Of a stretch of DNA of 64,000 nucleotides, positions 8,849 to 61,596 are shown piece by piece. The stretch comes from Candidatus Omnitrophota bacterium. GTDB lineage: Bacteria > Omnitrophota > Gorgyraeia > Velamenicoccales > JABMQK01. The notes beneath the pieces were generated by a model. The model worked only from the letters and a program-made list of their open reading frames with translations, was not told where the DNA came from and searched no databases. Each line of letters opens with the position of its first letter. Position 1 is the stretch's first letter. The DNA is taken from the NCBI GenBank assembly GCA_028711115.1, contig JAQTSV010000001.1, forward strand, positions 454,032 through 518,031, written 5' to 3'. Position numbers and translations under genes: made by a program.

Positions 8849-8877
8849 AAGAGAGACTTAAGAAAAACAAACTTTAT

Positions 8878-10489: not shown

Positions 10490-10896
10490 GGGGGTGAAAG
10501 GTTTCGACTCAGGGTAATCGCAGAAGTAGAGCATGTAGAGGTGCAAGGAGGCCTCTTAAAACACCTTGCAAATCACAAACGCAAACGTTAATCGTTTAGC
10601 GGAAGCTTCAGTAGCGACAGGAAGGTTTTTTACTCCTGTCCTTGCTGGGGCACCAGTCGTCTGCCTCCAGTAAGGTAGGCGCAGCTGTTTGCCTTGCCTG
10701 AGGGGTAAATGGTTTTTTAATCAGGATAGTTGCGGAGACTGCCTTTGTCTTCGTGGCGAAACCTTAAAAGGATAGTCTCTTTTTAATCCTGTCTATGGGA
10801 GTATGAAGGGGCGAATTTTAAAAAATAGACTAAACATGTAGTCGCTGCTTTTGGGGTTTCTTGGGGACGTGGGTTCGAATCCCACCACCTCCACCA
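10490..10896 (+). ncRNA. ssrA: tmRNA (SsrA)
   Basis: The 5' GGGGGTG pairs with the 3' CACCTCC-A-CCA, including the G3:U pair (alanine identity). T-arm GTGGGTTCGAATCCCAC. PK1 (GAGG..CCTC / TGCAAGG..CCTTGCA) lies upstream of a GCA resume-codon candidate at 10581. Confidence 0.9.
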
Positions 10897-22455: not shown

Positions 22456-22815
22456 ATGGAGGAGAAAAGAAAATATCCTCGCTACGGTTGCTGTCCCGGA
22501 AGAAATTTTGTAGCAAGACACGAAAATAAAAAAAGTATTCTGGGGGAAATCAAGGATTTCAGCCGCGGGGGCATATGTTTTGATTCAAAAAATCGCCTAA
22601 ACACTGACGACCAGCTGGGGTTGGATTTAGAGATTGACGGATTGGACCAAAAGATGCCTGCAGGCATTCAGATCCGCTGGTGCAAAAAGAATAAAGGCCG
22701 CTATACATACGGAGCAAGATTAGTAAATATGAATCCGGGCAGTAAATTTGATATTATGGATTTATTGTATCAGGACTGGAGAAAGAATCTAAACTCGAGT
22801 TCGTTATTAAGCTAA
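22456..22815 (+). CDS. stand-alone PilZ-domain c-di-GMP receptor
   Basis: RKYPR (RxxxR) followed by DFSRGG (D/NxSxxG); 119 aa. Confidence 0.75.
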   Translation: MEEKRKYPRYGCCPGRNFVARHENKKSILGEIKDFSRGGICFDSKNRLNTDDQLGLDLEIDGLDQKMPAGIQIRWCKKNKGRYTYGARLVNMNPGSKFDIMDLLYQDWRKNLNSSSLLS

Positions 22816-26898: not shown

Positions 26899-29800
26899 TT
26901 GGTTAACAGATTTAACATTATGCGCCGTATATTTAGCCTAAGCAAAGTTATCAATTTCTTATATGTCCTTCTCATTATAATTTCCTTTCTTCTTGTTCCC
27001 TACCATAATATCCGCACCGGTTTTACTAATTGGGGTTTTGTGGGAGCCGGAGGGGCAAAAGGCCCTGTCAATGCTGGCGCATTGGCGGTGCAGAGGGCTT
27101 TGACGCTATTATTGATAACTTTCTATATTTACTATTTGCGATTAAAAAGGAAGATAAGAGATGAAAACTATGAGATTGATTTAGCAATCAAGGAATCTGA
27201 AGACAGGCGTCATCGAGTCGAGAGGGAATATTTCAGGTTAAAGAAACAGATGCAGAATATATTTGATGCGATGGATGATTTTGTATTTATATGTTCCAAA
27301 GATTTTAAGATAGAATTTATGAACAAGTCCTTGAAAAAAGTTTTCGGCGAGGGCGTGGGTAAGAAATGCTATGAAATTTTATACGGCAGGCAGGATGCCT
27401 GTCCCTGGTGTTTTGGCAAGCGGGTTTATGAAGGAGAGTTTGTTACTTTAGAGCATAAGCACGAAATTAATAAAAGAATATACAGAATATACAGTAGTCC
27501 CTTGATTAATCCCGACGGCAGCATTTCAAAAATTTCAGTTATGCATGATATTACCAAAGAAAAAGAAATGCAGGTCAAAATAGAGTCATCAGAACAATAT
27601 TTCCGCAATCTTTTTGAAAATCTGCCAGTGGCTTGTTTTGGTTATGATATAGAAGGAAGAATCATTACATGGAATAAGGCAGCCAGCAATGTATACGGAT
27701 TTAAGAAGGAGGATGTTTTAAATCACTCGATATTCGATACGTTAGCTCAAGAGAAAGACCGTGAACGGACTATGCATTTTATAAAGGAGATATTTAAGGG
27801 CAGATCTTTCGACGGGCTGGAATGGGAAGATAAAACCGCCGACGGGACCAAACGTTATGTCTACACCAGCACTTATCCTTTGTATGATTTGGATGGAAAT
27901 GTTTTAATGGGCATAAGCGTCAATATAGATATCACACCGCAAAAGACAATAGAACATGAACTGAAATCTTCCAAAGAGCATTTAGAAAAAATTATGGAGA
28001 CGCCTCAAAGTTTGATTGTTGAGCTAAGCCCAGATATGAAAATTAAAATGTTCAACACGGGATGTGAATTATCAACTGGTTATAATAGGTCAGAAGTAAT
28101 AGGTAAGGATTGGTTAGAATTATTTATCCCGGACAGATTAAAGGATGAAACCAGATTTGTCTTCGAGGAGGTAAAAAATGATAGAAATATACTCCCGGGT
28201 CATCACGAAAATCCTATTTTAACTAAATCCGGCGAAGAAAAAATTATTTTTTGGTCGAATACCAATTTAAAAGACGAAGACGGCAAAGTAATTAGCGTTA
28301 TTTCCATGGGTATAGATATTACAGAACGTAAAATTGCCCAACAAAAGATTGTTGAGGCAGAAGAAAAATACAGGGCTTTCCTGGAGAATGTTCCCGTCCA
28401 TGTGGGCGTAATAGACGAGTCCGGTAAATTTGTTATTTGGAATAAGTATTCAGAACAGATGCTGGGTTACACTAAAGAAGAAGCTCTGGGAAAGATGTCC
28501 CCCGGGGATATACATGAGACAAAAGAAGAAGCCAGGGAGGTTATAGAGATAGCAAGCCAAAAAGGTATCTTCGATAAAGAGCTGAACTTAATCCATAAAG
28601 ACGGCAGAAAGATTCCTGTGAGTTTAATTGTTGTGCCCAGGGTAGTTAATAATAAAATTGTAGGTTTTCTGGGTTTTGGCAGGGATGTCAGCGAACGTAA
28701 AAACACCGAGAAAGAATTGTTGGCTGCTAAAGAGAAGTTAGAAAGCATCGCTTTAAAAGATCCGCAGACAGAGCTTTATAATAATCGCTATGTCGTGGAA
28801 AGATTGGCTTCTGAATTCGAGAGGGCTAAGCGTTCTTTTTCGCCGTTGTCTTTATTATTGATAGATTTGGATTATTTTAAATCAATTAACGATACATACG
28901 GTCATGAATTTGGCGATAAGGCTTTGGTTCAGGTGGCAAAGTTGTTAAAGTCGGAACTGCGTGCCAATGATATTGTAGCGCGTTGGGGTGGCGAGGAATT
29001 TATGGTAATCCTGCCGGAGGTTGATCGACAGAATGCAATTTTGGTTTCCAGAAAGATTCTCCGCGTATTTGAATACAAAGGGTTTGGCGATGAAAAGAAT
29101 ATCGTAAATTTAAAGTGCAGTGTTGGTATAGTCAGCTATCCAGAAGATCCGTTGTTCAGCCCTAAAGAGATGCTTGAAGCAGTGGAAAAGTCTGTTTTTA
29201 AAGTAAAGACGGCAGGTGGTAACGGCATGGGTTCTTATATGGAAGGATTCATAAAGAAAGATGATGACAAAGCAGCACTTTCCGAGAAGGACCGCCTTCT
29301 GGATTCTTTAAAAGAGAAGATGTCCCTTTTTGCCATCAGAGGGGAAGAGAGTATTCTGGAGGCGATATATTCTTTATCAAAAAGCCTGGAGTTAAAGGAT
29401 CATACTACGCGCACTCATTCCGAAAAGACGGTACACTATGCTGTAAAATTAGCCCAGAGATTTGACTTGGGAGAGCGGGAAATCGAGAATGTCAGGCGCG
29501 CAGCTATTTTGCACGATATAGGTAAATTAGGCATTCCCGATAAGATTCTTCTTAAGAAGGGGCCGTTAACTAAAAATGAGTTCGAGATTGTAAAACAGCA
29601 TCCCAAGATTGCTGCAGAGATTATGTCAGTAGCAGAGTTTCTGAAGGATAGCGTACCTTATGTAGAACATCATCATGAAAGATACGACGGTAAAGGCTAT
29701 CCCGACGGATTAAAAGGGGAAGAGATTCCTTTTGGCGCACGCATTGTTTCTATAGTAGATGTTTATGAAGCATTGACTGCGGATAGGCCATATCGCAGGG

Positions 29801-29910
29801 CATTGCCCAAAGAAGAGGCCATTAAAATAATTAAAGACAGTTCAGGAATTCAGTTTGATCCCAAAGTAGTTAATGCATTTCTCGATTTAATCAGCAGCGA
29901 GAGAACATAA
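26899..29910 (+). CDS. membrane-anchored multi-PAS sensor with GGDEF diguanylate cyclase and HD-GYP phosphodiesterase domains
   Basis: Several PAS-like repeats. I-site RAND positioned 5 aa before GGEEF. HDIGKLGIP and HHERYDGKGYP (HD-GYP). TTG start at 26899, alternative ATG at 26920. Confidence 0.85.
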   Translation: MVNRFNIMRRIFSLSKVINFLYVLLIIISFLLVPYHNIRTGFTNWGFVGAGGAKGPVNAGALAVQRALTLLLITFYIYYLRLKRKIRDENYEIDLAIKESEDRRHRVEREYFRLKKQMQNIFDAMDDFVFICSKDFKIEFMNKSLKKVFGEGVGKKCYEILYGRQDACPWCFGKRVYEGEFVTLEHKHEINKRIYRIYSSPLINPDGSISKISVMHDITKEKEMQVKIESSEQYFRNLFENLPVACFGYDIEGRIITWNKAASNVYGFKKEDVLNHSIFDTLAQEKDRERTMHFIKEIFKGRSFDGLEWEDKTADGTKRYVYTSTYPLYDLDGNVLMGISVNIDITPQKTIEHELKSSKEHLEKIMETPQSLIVELSPDMKIKMFNTGCELSTGYNRSEVIGKDWLELFIPDRLKDETRFVFEEVKNDRNILPGHHENPILTKSGEEKIIFWSNTNLKDEDGKVISVISMGIDITERKIAQQKIVEAEEKYRAFLENVPVHVGVIDESGKFVIWNKYSEQMLGYTKEEALGKMSPGDIHETKEEAREVIEIASQKGIFDKELNLIHKDGRKIPVSLIVVPRVVNNKIVGFLGFGRDVSERKNTEKELLAAKEKLESIALKDPQTELYNNRYVVERLASEFERAKRSFSPLSLLLIDLDYFKSINDTYGHEFGDKALVQVAKLLKSELRANDIVARWGGEEFMVILPEVDRQNAILVSRKILRVFEYKGFGDEKNIVNLKCSVGIVSYPEDPLFSPKEMLEAVEKSVFKVKTAGGNGMGSYMEGFIKKDDDKAALSEKDRLLDSLKEKMSLFAIRGEESILEAIYSLSKSLELKDHTTRTHSEKTVHYAVKLAQRFDLGEREIENVRRAAILHDIGKLGIPDKILLKKGPLTKNEFEIVKQHPKIAAEIMSVAEFLKDSVPYVEHHHERYDGKGYPDGLKGEEIPFGARIVSIVDVYEALTADRPYRRALPKEEAIKIIKDSSGIQFDPKVVNAFLDLISSERT

Positions 29911-58855: not shown

Positions 58856-60262
58856 ATGTCAGTCAGGATTAAATTCTTAGGCGGCGTACAGACAGTCACG
58901 GGCTCAAGCCATTTAGTCTCCACGAGATTTTCCGATATACTTATTGATTGCGGTTTATTCTATGGCCGCCGCGATGAGTTCTATGAGCTGAATTCTTCCT
59001 TTAAATACAATCCGCGCGAGCTGGACGCGGTATTGTTGTCCCACGCGCATATCGACCATTGCGGAAATCTTCCCAATTTAATCAAAAGAGGATTACACTG
59101 TAAGATTTATACTACCTCTGCCACCAAGGATTTGTGCAGCCTGATGTTGGCGGACAGCGGTAAGGTCCAGGAAGAAGATGTCCGCTATCTGAATAAGATA
59201 AACCGCCGCTTAGGCCAAAGGCAGCGTATGCGCCGTCCTCTTTATACAGAAAAGGAAGGCCGCCACAGCCTGCGCAAATTCCGGGCATTATCTTATCGCC
59301 AGAGATTCAAAGTTACCAAAGATGTTACCTGTACTTTTTATGACGCCGCGCATATTCTGGGCTCAAGCATTATTGTCTTGGATATTAATTCAGACAGAAA
59401 CAACAATATGCGTATTGGCTATGCTGTGGACTTGGGGCGCAAAGGCCTGCCTTTGTTAAATGAGCCTACCATAATCGAAGGTATGGACTATTTGATTTTG
59501 GAAAGCACCTACGGCGGCAGGGTACATAGCCCTATTGCTGAGGCAAAGAATAAATTAAAAGATGCAATCAACAGGACAATAGAGCGCTCCGGAAAAGTAA
59601 TCATTCCTTCTTTTGCTCTGGAGAGGGCGCAGGAGGTTATATATTTTTTAAATGAACTCATAAAGGAAAAACAAATACCGCCGATTCCTATTTATGTGGA
59701 TAGCCCTCTGGCGACGAACATCACTGATGTTTTCCGTACGCACTACGGCTATCTCGATAACGAGACGCGTATGGCCATGAAGAGTAAGAAAGAAGGGCCT
59801 TTTGATTTTGTTAATCTCAACTATATCGCCGACAGGAATGATTCCAAGTCGCTGAATAACGATAAGCGCCCCATGATTATTATCGCCGGCTCAGGCATGT
59901 GTGAAGCAGGAAGGATTCTGCACCATCTTAAAAATAATATCACAGAATCCAAAAATACGGTTTTGGTTGTAGGTTATATGGCAGAGAATACTTTGGGTAA
60001 GAAGATAGTGGAGAGGCAGCGTTATGTGCGTATATATGGCGTGGAGTATGAACTGAATGCAGAGGTGGTGGTGATTAACGCCTTTTCCGGCCACGCCGAT
60101 AAAAATGAATTATGCGAATACGTCAAGTCGTGCCTGCCAATAAAGAAGGTATTTATTGTGCACGGAGAAAAAGAGCAGTCAGAGAACATAGCCGGTCTTT
60201 TATCGCAATCCGGCATAAATACGCACATACCCGAAAAATACGAAGAAGCAGTATTGACATAG
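58856..60262 (+). CDS. metallo-beta-lactamase / beta-CASP family ribonuclease (CPSF/RNase J-like)
   Basis: LSHAHIDHCG (HxHxDH), ESTYG, and C-terminal SGHAD motifs. Confidence 0.8.
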   Translation: MSVRIKFLGGVQTVTGSSHLVSTRFSDILIDCGLFYGRRDEFYELNSSFKYNPRELDAVLLSHAHIDHCGNLPNLIKRGLHCKIYTTSATKDLCSLMLADSGKVQEEDVRYLNKINRRLGQRQRMRRPLYTEKEGRHSLRKFRALSYRQRFKVTKDVTCTFYDAAHILGSSIIVLDINSDRNNNMRIGYAVDLGRKGLPLLNEPTIIEGMDYLILESTYGGRVHSPIAEAKNKLKDAINRTIERSGKVIIPSFALERAQEVIYFLNELIKEKQIPPIPIYVDSPLATNITDVFRTHYGYLDNETRMAMKSKKEGPFDFVNLNYIADRNDSKSLNNDKRPMIIIAGSGMCEAGRILHHLKNNITESKNTVLVVGYMAENTLGKKIVERQRYVRIYGVEYELNAEVVVINAFSGHADKNELCEYVKSCLPIKKVFIVHGEKEQSENIAGLLSQSGINTHIPEKYEEAVLT

Positions 60263-60319: not shown

Positions 60320-60874
60320 ATGAAGAAACATATCTTTAAAATTATGGTTTTGTTTTTATGCTTGAGTTTTTCTTCTTGCGCTACATTTTCTGAAAGTGCA
60401 GATTATTATAGGCGCGCCCGTTATCTGGCAAGGAAGAATAATTGCGATAAAGCATTTATGCAGCTTAAGGAATTATTGAGCAATGAACCTAATTCTAAAT
60501 ATGCGCCTGCGGCATCTTTTAGTGTCGGCGAGTATTATCTTGATAAAGAGGATTACCCGGATGCACTGGTTGCTTTCCAGGAATATATAAAATACTATCC
60601 CGACGATCCCGCGGTTATATTTGCTGAATTAATTATTTATAAAATCGGTTCTCAAATAAAGAAGAATAAGGAAGTTTCGTCCCAGGAGCAATATCTTTTT
60701 GAAACCATAAGACAAAAAATATTATCCAAGCCGCTGTTCCTTTTTGTTTTCAACGACAACATAGACAGGATTTCCTATAGCTCATTGTTTGGTAATAGCT
60801 ACATAGTCTTTTATTCCAAGAATAAGATTATAGCAATACGCAATGGCAAGGTTTTTGTGGAGCTCATCAGGTAG
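60320..60874 (+). CDS. TPR-like lipoprotein (BamD/YbgF-like, tentative)
   Basis: Lipobox LSFSSCAT. NSKYAPAASFSVGEYYLDKEDYPDALVAFQEYIKYYPDD resembles BamD/YbgF TPR repeats. Confidence 0.4.
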   Translation: MKKHIFKIMVLFLCLSFSSCATFSESADYYRRARYLARKNNCDKAFMQLKELLSNEPNSKYAPAASFSVGEYYLDKEDYPDALVAFQEYIKYYPDDPAVIFAELIIYKIGSQIKKNKEVSSQEQYLFETIRQKILSKPLFLFVFNDNIDRISYSSLFGNSYIVFYSKNKIIAIRNGKVFVELIR

Positions 60875-60910
60875 AGTTATTTTTGATTGTAAAACTCTAT
60901 CATTCCGCCT

Positions 60911-60944
60911 AAAAAAGAAACCCCGGACTGTACGAAAGTCCGAG
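60911..60944 (-). terminator. Rho-independent terminator of the riboswitch transcript
   Basis: The minus strand shows CUCGGACU-UUCGUAC-AGUCCGGG (8 bp including one G:U) followed by GUUUCUUUUUU. Confidence 0.75.
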
Positions 60945-61126
60945 GCTGTTGAGAAGCCCCGAAAAGTTTTTCCTAAAAACTGCTTTCCTTCGGCAACCCA
61001 GCCGCCATGTCACTTGTGTACTCGGTTTTTTCCTTGCAACCTCAGCAATCGCAAGGACTTGCAAGTGGTTTAGGCCTGTCGGCTTTGCGCCCCCTGATTT
61101 CTCAGGGTTTACCTTTTCGGGCCAGT
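60911..61126 (-). promoter_or_regulatory. c-di-GMP-I (GEMM-I) riboswitch: aptamer about 61113 to 60992 plus terminator-type expression platform
   Basis: The minus strand reads GGUAAACC-CUGA-GAAA-UCAG-GGGGCGCAAAGCC-GACAGGCCUAAACCACUUG...CAAGUGACAUGGCGGCUGGGUUGCC. This parallels the Vc2 aptamer core: P2 with a GAAA loop, the CGCAAAGCC junction, the CCUAAAC strand and the GGGUUxCC 3' strand. P1 GGUAA/UUGCC pairs fully. Confidence 0.8.
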
Positions 61127-61131
61127 AAAAG

Positions 61132-61158
61132 TATATAACAAAATCAGGCGACTTTCAA
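61132..61158 (-). promoter_or_regulatory. sigma70-like promoter with extended -10 driving the riboswitch
   Basis: On the minus strand: TTGAAA (61158-61153), 15-nt spacer ending in TGT, TATATA (61137-61132). The predicted start is near 61126. Confidence 0.5.
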
Positions 61159-61326
61159 GGTGTGGTATTTATATATTTATTATAAAAAAAGATTTCTTTA
61201 TCTCTTAACTTCTAGTAAATAAATGATTTATCTGTCAGAATAAAAATGCTTGTCTAGATAGTTTGAGGAGATTATAATATTAGCACTTGTAAGGTGCGCA
61301 TTTGCTTGTTAAACAGTGAGGTGTTT

Positions 61327-61596
61327 ATGGATAAGATAAAAATAGAAAAACCCACAGAGGCAAGACTCAAGCAATTAAATGTAAAAAGCTGGAGCCCCTG
61401 GGAGTGCGAGCCTTCTGTTTTTGACTGGGAATACGATTGTGATGAAAGTGCGTATGTATTAGAAGGCAGAGTGAAGGTAAAAACTTCCGCAGAAGAGGTA
61501 GAGATAAAAAAGGGCGACCTCGTGCATTTCCCCAAAGGTTTAAAGTGCAGTTGGAATGTCATAGAAAAGATTAAGAAAGTTTATACATTGAAATAA
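61327..61596 (+). CDS. small cupin (DUF861/cupin_3-like)
   Basis: WSPWECEPSVFDWEYDCDESAYVLEGRVKV....IKKGDLVHFPKGLKCSWNV...KKVY pattern. ATG at 61327 with a GTGAGG SD. The track ORF start at 61294 is an upstream extension. Confidence 0.7.
   Translation: MDKIKIEKPTEARLKQLNVKSWSPWECEPSVFDWEYDCDESAYVLEGRVKVKTSAEEVEIKKGDLVHFPKGLKCSWNVIEKIKKVYTLK

Follow-up and report, generated by a model that had tools for sequence, protein, structure and literature searches.

A c-di-GMP-I riboswitch RNA without a protein-coding target in Omnitrophota and its possible role in gating antisense transcription

The DNA considered here is a stretch of 64,000 nucleotides (nt) from a Candidatus Omnitrophota bacterium (assembly GCA_028711115.1, contig JAQTSV010000001.1, positions 454,032 to 518,031), which is referred to throughout as the window. 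On its minus strand, between a lipoprotein gene and a cupin gene, lies a class I riboswitch for cyclic di-GMP (c-di-GMP), which a first-pass annotation of the window had described as an orphan directed at the 3' end of a convergent gene. Conservation in related genomes, which that annotation had left to be looked up, is now evident, as the unit recurs in eight further Omnitrophota assemblies. The reading placed first, though only tentatively, is that of a c-di-GMP-I riboswitch RNA of about 210 nt that is transcribed from its own promoter, has no protein gene as its target and would serve as a c-di-GMP-gated antisense transcript. That the RNA binds its ligand, in which direction it switches and what read-through does are inferred from the sequence.

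Identity and fold of the aptamer

The aptamer was called by cmscan of the whole 64-kb window against Rfam with clan competition on, and only three Rfam matches were obtained, namely a c-di-GMP-I riboswitch, a transfer-messenger RNA (tmRNA) and a tRNA. The RF01051 (c-di-GMP-I) match runs on the minus strand from 61123 to 60989, scores 57.5 bits against a gathering threshold of 35 (E 1.3e-8) and spans positions 1-87 of the 87 in the model, with a 50-nt insertion in the P3 loop. The GEMM-I aptamer recognised in the first-pass annotation is therefore upheld over its full length, and the minus-strand element is a member of RF01051 by every available test of membership. Its parts are as follows.

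60989..61123, minus strand: c-di-GMP-I (GEMM-I) aptamer, from the covariance-model match and compensatory changes
61107-61092, minus strand: P2 with a GAAA tetraloop
61032..61056, minus strand: extra hairpin in P3 (CCUUGCG, 11-nt loop, UGCAAGG), from the insertion and its covariation
60967..60991, minus strand: purine-rich 3' bulge leading from the aptamer to the 3' strand of an outer helix, P0 (trimmed alignment A3)

The P2 tetraloop is GAAA in eight of the nine copies of the family described below and UAAA in the remaining one (L087). P3 carries a CCUAAA / CAUGG motif that reads from its sequence as receptor-like, and CAUGG/UAUGG-like partners stand at the expected places across the copies. 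The junction G (61113), AAA (61086-61084) and GCC (60994-60992) are invariant in all nine, and the RF01051 consensus positions GG, CAAAG and GCC are likewise present and invariant throughout. The ligand of the Vc2 riboswitch is contacted by G20, A47 and C92 (PMC4744006, PMC5888326), and the equivalents of these nucleotides, inferred from the covariance-model alignment, are G 61113, A 61086 and C 60993. The first-pass annotation had drawn P1 as GGUAA/UUGCC; this pairing was set aside, since the covariation of U/C19 with G/A42 (UA in four sequences, CG in three and UG in two) backs the pairing given by Rfam.

The hairpin inserted in P3 changes across the copies from C-G to U-A and from G-U to A-U (helix 6 of the alignment), and its loop (61049-61039), which is mostly UGUUGAGG, holds an invariant UGAG. 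The purine-rich bulge varies between 13 and 26 nt in the family, with an invariant GAAGG at its start and an invariant GAAAAA at its end. A local AGUUUUU/AAAAACU hairpin within the window's bulge was not counted as part of the element because it is absent in the relatives. P2, the outer helix, the terminator and the hairpin inserted in P3 all appear when 61130-60905 is folded at minimum free energy (MFE; z-score -2.5). The AGCC at the base of P3 (61081-61084) recurs at the 5' end (61113-61124), which reads GGCCC in the window and AGCCC in most of the family, and GGGUU pairs with either AGCC copy in energy-based folds, which could represent an alternative pairing of the apo state.

Conservation in related genomes

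A search of the protein collection for homologs of the lipoprotein returned only the lipoprotein itself; hence its neighbours, the beta-CASP RNase and the cupin, were used as synteny anchors. The beta-CASP anchor led to 80 genome loci, among which the element is found only in the closest (L004, 78% identity), and 39 further beta-CASP loci (L005-L043), mostly labelled Omnitrophota, have no RF01051 match within 5 kb. Cupin homologs led to seven more syntenic loci (L084, L085, L086, L087, L088, L089 and L218). In all eight syntenic homologs RF01051 is matched over its full length at 58.1-69.3 bits, always on the other strand from the cupin gene, while cupin homologs in other gene contexts (L090, L213, L216) have none; the upstream side of one more locus (L217) was too short for assessment. 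The family consists of nine copies from nine different Omnitrophota assemblies or samples, all at one syntenic position.

When the whole intergenic regions are aligned (alignment A2), conservation on the riboswitch strand begins at the -35 box and ends at the terminator, downstream of which nothing aligns. The structure was tested on the trimmed alignment A3, in a model of 48 pairs that joins those of Rfam to the outer helix, the hairpin inserted in P3 and a candidate pseudoknot. Standard pairs fill 96% of the cells over the nine sequences and 11 of the 48 pairs have changed on both sides, values reached by 0 of 500 column shuffles; slid partners pair in 32-51%. Helices 2-5 of the aptamer are paired in 98-100%, each with one or two compensatory pairs, and such changes indicate continued selection on the fold.

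A pattern scan of metagenome DNA returned 120 loci, which were rejected as family members and regarded as generic GEMM-I copies because only the 5' half of the aptamer is common to them (blastn). Three of these generic loci (L105, L130 and L143) have two same-strand pattern matches each. In L105 and L143 the two lie 140-240 nt apart, as tandem c-di-GMP-I aptamers; in L130 the distance is about 1.2 kb. No paper was found in the literature that links Omnitrophota with a gene-less c-di-GMP RNA of this kind.

Promoter and expression platform

The intergenic gap extends from 60875 to 61326 and measures 452 nt, in agreement with the first-pass annotation. The riboswitch promoter lies within it.

61130..61158, minus strand: sigma-70-type promoter (consensus scan, 10/12 consensus matches)

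On the minus strand the -35 box reads TTGAAA (61158-61153) and the -10 box TATACT (61135-61130), separated by a 17-nt spacer. CTTGAAA, TATACT and the 17-nt spacing are invariant in the nine genomes and the sequence of the spacer is variable, which is good evidence for a real promoter. The promoter proposed earlier is conserved, in the register TTGAAA-N17-TATACT rather than as the TTGAAA-15-TGnTATATA that had been written. The predicted 5' end of the riboswitch falls at about 61123, that is, 0-2 nt ahead of the outer helix. The helices that are predicted to make up the expression platform are listed below.

61113..61121, minus strand: 5' strand of P0, CCCGAAAAG (MFE fold, duplex energy)
60958..60966, minus strand: 3' strand of P0, CUUUUCGGG, overlapping the 5' strand of the antiterminator
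60939..60963, minus strand: candidate antiterminator hairpin, UUCGGGGCU / AGCCUCGGA (per-sequence folding)
60909..60947, minus strand: intrinsic terminator with an 11-bp (base pair) stem (6 G-C), a 7-nt loop and a TCTTTTTT tail (consensus scan)

P0 has nine base pairs, with a duplex energy of -13.5 kcal/mol in the window and -10.2 to -13.5 kcal/mol in the family. The outer helix of the first-pass annotation was therefore correct in substance, being part of the MFE fold, and off by one in the coordinates of its 5' strand. Seven of the nine pairs are invariant across the nine sequences, and covariation neither supports nor refutes a helix whose pairs are so nearly invariant. Since the aptamer could be closed by no other helix, P0 is taken as the equivalent of P1.

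The terminator and the antiterminator were judged from per-sequence folds, as the MAFFT alignment is thrown out of register there by indels. The strong intrinsic terminator claimed earlier, an 11-bp stem followed by a T-tract, is present, its stem-loop lying at 60947..60919. Terminator hairpins of -16.6 to -25.4 kcal/mol occur in all nine copies with differing stem sequences, and the U-tract is adjacent in eight of them. In L086 (2606-2650, minus strand) the terminator hairpin is followed by CGGAAUCAUAAAUUAAUUUUUU, with the U-tract displaced by about 17 nt.

The candidate antiterminator folds at -11.9 kcal/mol in the window; across seven of the nine copies its energy ranges from -9.5 to -15.1 kcal/mol. 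It occupies nearly the entire 5' half of the terminator, also overlaps the 3' strand of P0, and encloses the invariant CUCAAC (60953-60948) in its loop. The position after GGGG forms a C-G pair in three genomes and a U-A pair in four. On the predicted pairings, P0, the antiterminator and the terminator are three mutually exclusive helices in the order found in a transcriptional OFF riboswitch, and it is this geometry that points to OFF as the sign of the switch. For transcripts cut in the terminator loop, structures in which P0 is enforced and those in which the antiterminator is enforced differ by only 0.3-4 kcal/mol, so that the two states are nearly iso-energetic. The covarying antiterminator can form together with neither the outer helix nor the terminator; this speaks for regulated read-through and agrees with the first-pass view of a gate on an antisense RNA.

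A mechanism may be proposed on these grounds. The conserved promoter would start the transcript 0-2 nt before P0, which would close the aptamer in the manner of P1. Bound c-di-GMP would stabilise the junction along with P0, and P0 would hold the CUUUUCGGGG segment, so that the terminator could form and transcription would end near 60912. At low c-di-GMP, CGGGGY would instead pair with RCCCCG in the 5' half of the terminator as an antiterminator, and the polymerase would continue, in antisense, into the 3' end of the beta-CASP RNase / lipoprotein operon. Such read-through may lower the expression of the operon through transcriptional interference or duplex RNA.

One further contact is suggested by the alignment. 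The P3 insertion loop (UGAG) and the linker between P0 and the terminator (CUCAAC) are complementary over 5-9 bp, with duplex energies of -5.3 to -10.9 kcal/mol that are equalled by shuffled loops in 0.05-14% of trials, depending on the sequence. Ninety percent of the alignment cells pair, and a closing G-U is replaced by C-G in L084 and L087; three sequences have a C-A mismatch at one pair inside the helix. As the nine sequences are related, these figures are not independent of one another. A pseudoknot between the loop and the invariant CUCAAC is suggestive and not proven.

What lies downstream

Read-through would run towards an operon on the plus strand, of which two genes are of concern.

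60320..60874, plus strand: TPR/YfiO(BamD)-like lipoprotein gene, convergent with the riboswitch and last gene of the beta-CASP RNase operon
58856-60262, plus strand: beta-CASP RNase gene, head of the same operon

The lipoprotein stop codon is 37 nt from the end of the riboswitch T-tract. The distance from the terminator to the convergent stop codon is 9-37 nt in eight of the nine genomes (37 in the window, 9-32 in the seven others). The element is thus within 500 nt of a convergent 3' end and points at it, which is the position expected of antisense-oriented riboswitches (PMC9943018). The gene that is met first in each of the nine genomes is the last of an operon headed by the beta-CASP RNase gene. 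The earlier designation of the antisense target stands to the extent that a convergent 3' end is faced in all nine genomes; its choice of the lipoprotein gene as target is not borne out by conservation. Three unrelated genes take this place: besides the lipoprotein gene of the window, one for a weakly YhdP-like protein of ~650-690 aa (amino acids) in six genomes and one for a 110-aa protein in two. In L004 a run of N at 8851-8860, a scaffold gap, lies inside the ~650-aa convergent gene, and the 640-aa open reading frame (ORF) listed there is stitched across the gap.

There is no coding sequence downstream on the same strand that could be the target of a riboswitch in the strict sense. As the first-pass annotation had stated, no minus-strand ORF of at least 60 aa follows the riboswitch in the window. 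A conserved small protein gene, the discovery of which was held there to make the element an ordinary cis-regulator, was searched for downstream of the terminator by comparing position, length and sequence in the nine genomes, and no conserved small ORF of at least 12 aa was found. From genome to genome the ORFs within the element differ in where they start, in frame and in length, and for this reason a downstream small-protein gene or coding potential inside the element was rejected. What is found instead is a transcription unit of its own, with a conserved promoter and terminator and without a conserved ORF, as in a merRNA-like RNA.

Competing explanations

The conserved antiterminator is the main reason for ranking ligand-gated antisense read-through first. 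Several observations weigh against it. Read-through would first meet a different gene from one group of genomes to the next. In none of the nine sequences is the antiterminator as stable as the terminator, and termination could therefore be constitutive. The antiterminator is weak in L085 and L086 (-3.3 and -3.4 kcal/mol), the U-tract is displaced in L086, and this last copy may terminate differently or may not switch. P0 is without covariation support. Moreover, all nine genomes belong to fairly close relatives, and the shared synteny may reflect ancestry rather than function.

Some of these points favour a stand-alone c-di-GMP-binding small RNA (sRNA), which is possible and is kept as a close second because the target varies, the terminator is stronger in every copy and the antiterminator is weak in two. 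The terminated RNA of about 210 nt would then itself be the product, acting as a sponge or buffer for the ligand or, in a ligand-dependent manner, in trans on RNAs or proteins, for example through CUCAAC or GAAGGA...GAAAAA. The element has its own promoter and no ORF, and its 5' end pairs with a segment just before a strong terminator, a design typical of stable sRNAs; CUCAAC, GAAGG and GAAAAA are invariant and single-stranded amid variable linkers. A precedent exists in merRNA, which has no conserved downstream ORF (PMC3627812). However, a sponge or fixed sRNA needs no antiterminator, yet a covarying and competing one is present in seven of the nine copies. The sponge idea also rests on high abundance, the sponge role of merRNA is itself a hypothesis, and no trans target can be named.

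A more elaborate version, which is rather unlikely, would bring in the loop-linker contact. The element would be a regulatory RNA that works by itself under the control of c-di-GMP, in a nanobacterial lineage that depends on hosts (Omnitrophota). Its lineage-specific P3 insertion loop (UGAGG, at about 61043-61039) would dock on the invariant CUCAAC of its own platform as a pseudoknot or kissing contact, and the ligand would set both the 3' end and the single-stranded segment that is exposed for trans action. Such an RNA would be a functional parallel to the merRNA of Bdellovibrio and independent of it.

It is improbable that the element responds to a different ligand, be it 3'3'-cyclic GMP-AMP or that of another GEMM-I clan variant, or that it binds nothing and retains only its terminator function. 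GEMM-I variants of altered specificity are indeed separate Rfam models of the same clan (PMC9943018), and the consensus GAC reads GGC at 61090 in the window. Yet the c-di-GMP-I model is the best in all nine genomes under clan competition, which argues for c-di-GMP rather than a variant ligand; GAC is kept in six of the nine family members, the junction G, AAA and GCC do not vary, the tetraloop and the receptor-like motif are retained, and the compensatory changes speak for continued selection on the fold.

Least probable of all is control in cis of a small protein gene that has escaped recognition. Such was the outcome in C. difficile, where 'orphan' class I riboswitches for which no downstream gene was reported at first (PMC6200980) were later found to precede 58-aa proteins (bioRxiv 10.64898/2026.06.10.731418). 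Here the 8- and 18-codon ATG ORFs noted in the first-pass annotation do exist past the window's terminator but are not conserved, nor is any other downstream ORF in the nine genomes, sequence conservation ends at the terminator, and the convergent stop about 10 nt past the T-tract leaves no room in L084 and L087.

Neighbouring genes and other observations

The divergent side of the gap belongs to the cupin gene.

61327-61596, plus strand: Cupin_3 gene, divergent from the riboswitch and a constant neighbour in the nine genomes
61250-61278, plus strand: cupin promoter-like site TTGTCT-17-TATAAT, conserved across the nine genomes
22456-22815: PilZ gene, a c-di-GMP receptor in the window
26920-29910: PAS-GGDEF-HD gene, a c-di-GMP enzyme in the window

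Between the riboswitch promoter and the cupin gene, the two blocks of the cupin promoter are the only conserved sequence in the nine genomes. A small hairpin, GCACTTGTAAGGTGC, follows the promoter-like site in the 5' untranslated region of the cupin gene (window 61250-61297, plus strand). The cupin operon extends beyond the end of the window (L001 8569-11500, same genome) with genes for a PfkB kinase, an Asp/Glu racemase and a PTPS (QueD-like) protein, followed by QueC, a radical SAM protein (QueE-like) and QueF; a set of genes for queuosine precursors is hence placed in the operon divergent from the riboswitch. The genes for a PilZ receptor and a GGDEF/HD-type enzyme, pointed out in the first-pass annotation, are real.

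The riboswitch terminator is unlikely to be bidirectional and to serve the convergent operon as well, because on the plus strand its hairpin has no following U-tract. The only terminator-like site on the plus strand is the complement of P2 (61092-61107), followed by TTTACCTTTT, and it is weak. No canonical terminator for the convergent operon stands ahead of the riboswitch, so transcripts of the operon may continue into the riboswitch gene. Elsewhere in the window, the tmRNA (RF00023, 175.6 bits; 10490-10896, plus strand) has an insertion of about 57 nt after the region of the tag reading frame in comparison with the Rfam consensus.

Significance

Orphan and antisense-oriented c-di-GMP-I riboswitches are already known in kind (PMC3627812, PMC9943018, PMC6200980). 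The present locus adds a delimited and strongly conserved example in an uncultivated phylum, with an explicit three-helix platform, a bulged equivalent of P1 and a possible pseudoknot between aptamer and platform; the possible pairing of loop and CUCAAC is the one fresh detail. It is a compact candidate, with a defined promoter, nine natural variants that show covariation and no confounding coding sequence, and could show whether gene-less riboswitches for c-di-GMP control antisense transcription or are themselves the active RNAs. To our knowledge merRNA, the one famous orphan, is still unexplained.

Comparison with known systems

One close likeness is that to the RF01051 riboswitches such as Vc2 and to the OFF switches of C. 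difficile, in which class I riboswitches cause premature termination at high c-di-GMP (bioRxiv 10.64898/2026.06.10.731418). Shared features are the full-length match, the GAAA tetraloop of P2, the receptor-like motif of P3, the junction nucleotides and a terminator platform that is reached via the closing helix. In contrast to these systems there is no downstream coding sequence here, P3 carries a hairpin-bearing insertion of about 50 nt, a 3' bulge of 13-26 nt, rich in purines, lies between the junction and the closing helix, and pairing may occur between the P3 insertion loop and the platform's linker.

There are also riboswitches whose RNA is the effector. For example, the SAM (S-adenosylmethionine) riboswitches SreA and SreB act in trans, and EutX/Rli55 is a B12-gated sponge RNA. 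The resemblance is that a terminated riboswitch transcript or a gated noncoding RNA would do the work. Those RNAs, however, also regulate a gene in cis or carry a protein-binding site in the read-through part, and nothing comparable is conserved in the Omnitrophota element.

With regard to orientation, c-di-GMP was the family most enriched in antisense riboswitches in a 2023 survey (152 antisense against 2,554 sense, P 4.6e-62; PMC9943018). Validated antisense precedents cited there are B12- and SAM-gated RNAs. Riboswitches that act through antisense RNA include the B12 riboswitch with AspocR in Listeria and the SAM riboswitch with the ubiG antisense RNA in C. acetobutylicum. The Omnitrophota element resembles this class in lying less than 500 nt from a convergent 3' end and pointing at it, and its terminator platform would likewise gate an antisense transcript. 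It differs in that the target gene varies while the RNA is strongly conserved. We know of no antisense-oriented c-di-GMP riboswitch that has been validated experimentally.

The merRNA of Bdellovibrio bacteriovorus is a c-di-GMP riboswitch RNA without a conserved ORF and has been proposed as a store of c-di-GMP (Karunker et al. 2013, PMC3627812). Both RNAs have a c-di-GMP-I aptamer on a noncoding transcript, no conserved downstream ORF and conservation within a narrow lineage. The comparison of sequence is limited to the aptamer. merRNA is 445 nt long and is expressed at an extreme level in the attack phase, whereas the Omnitrophota RNA measures about 210 nt and has an apparent antiterminator/terminator switch.

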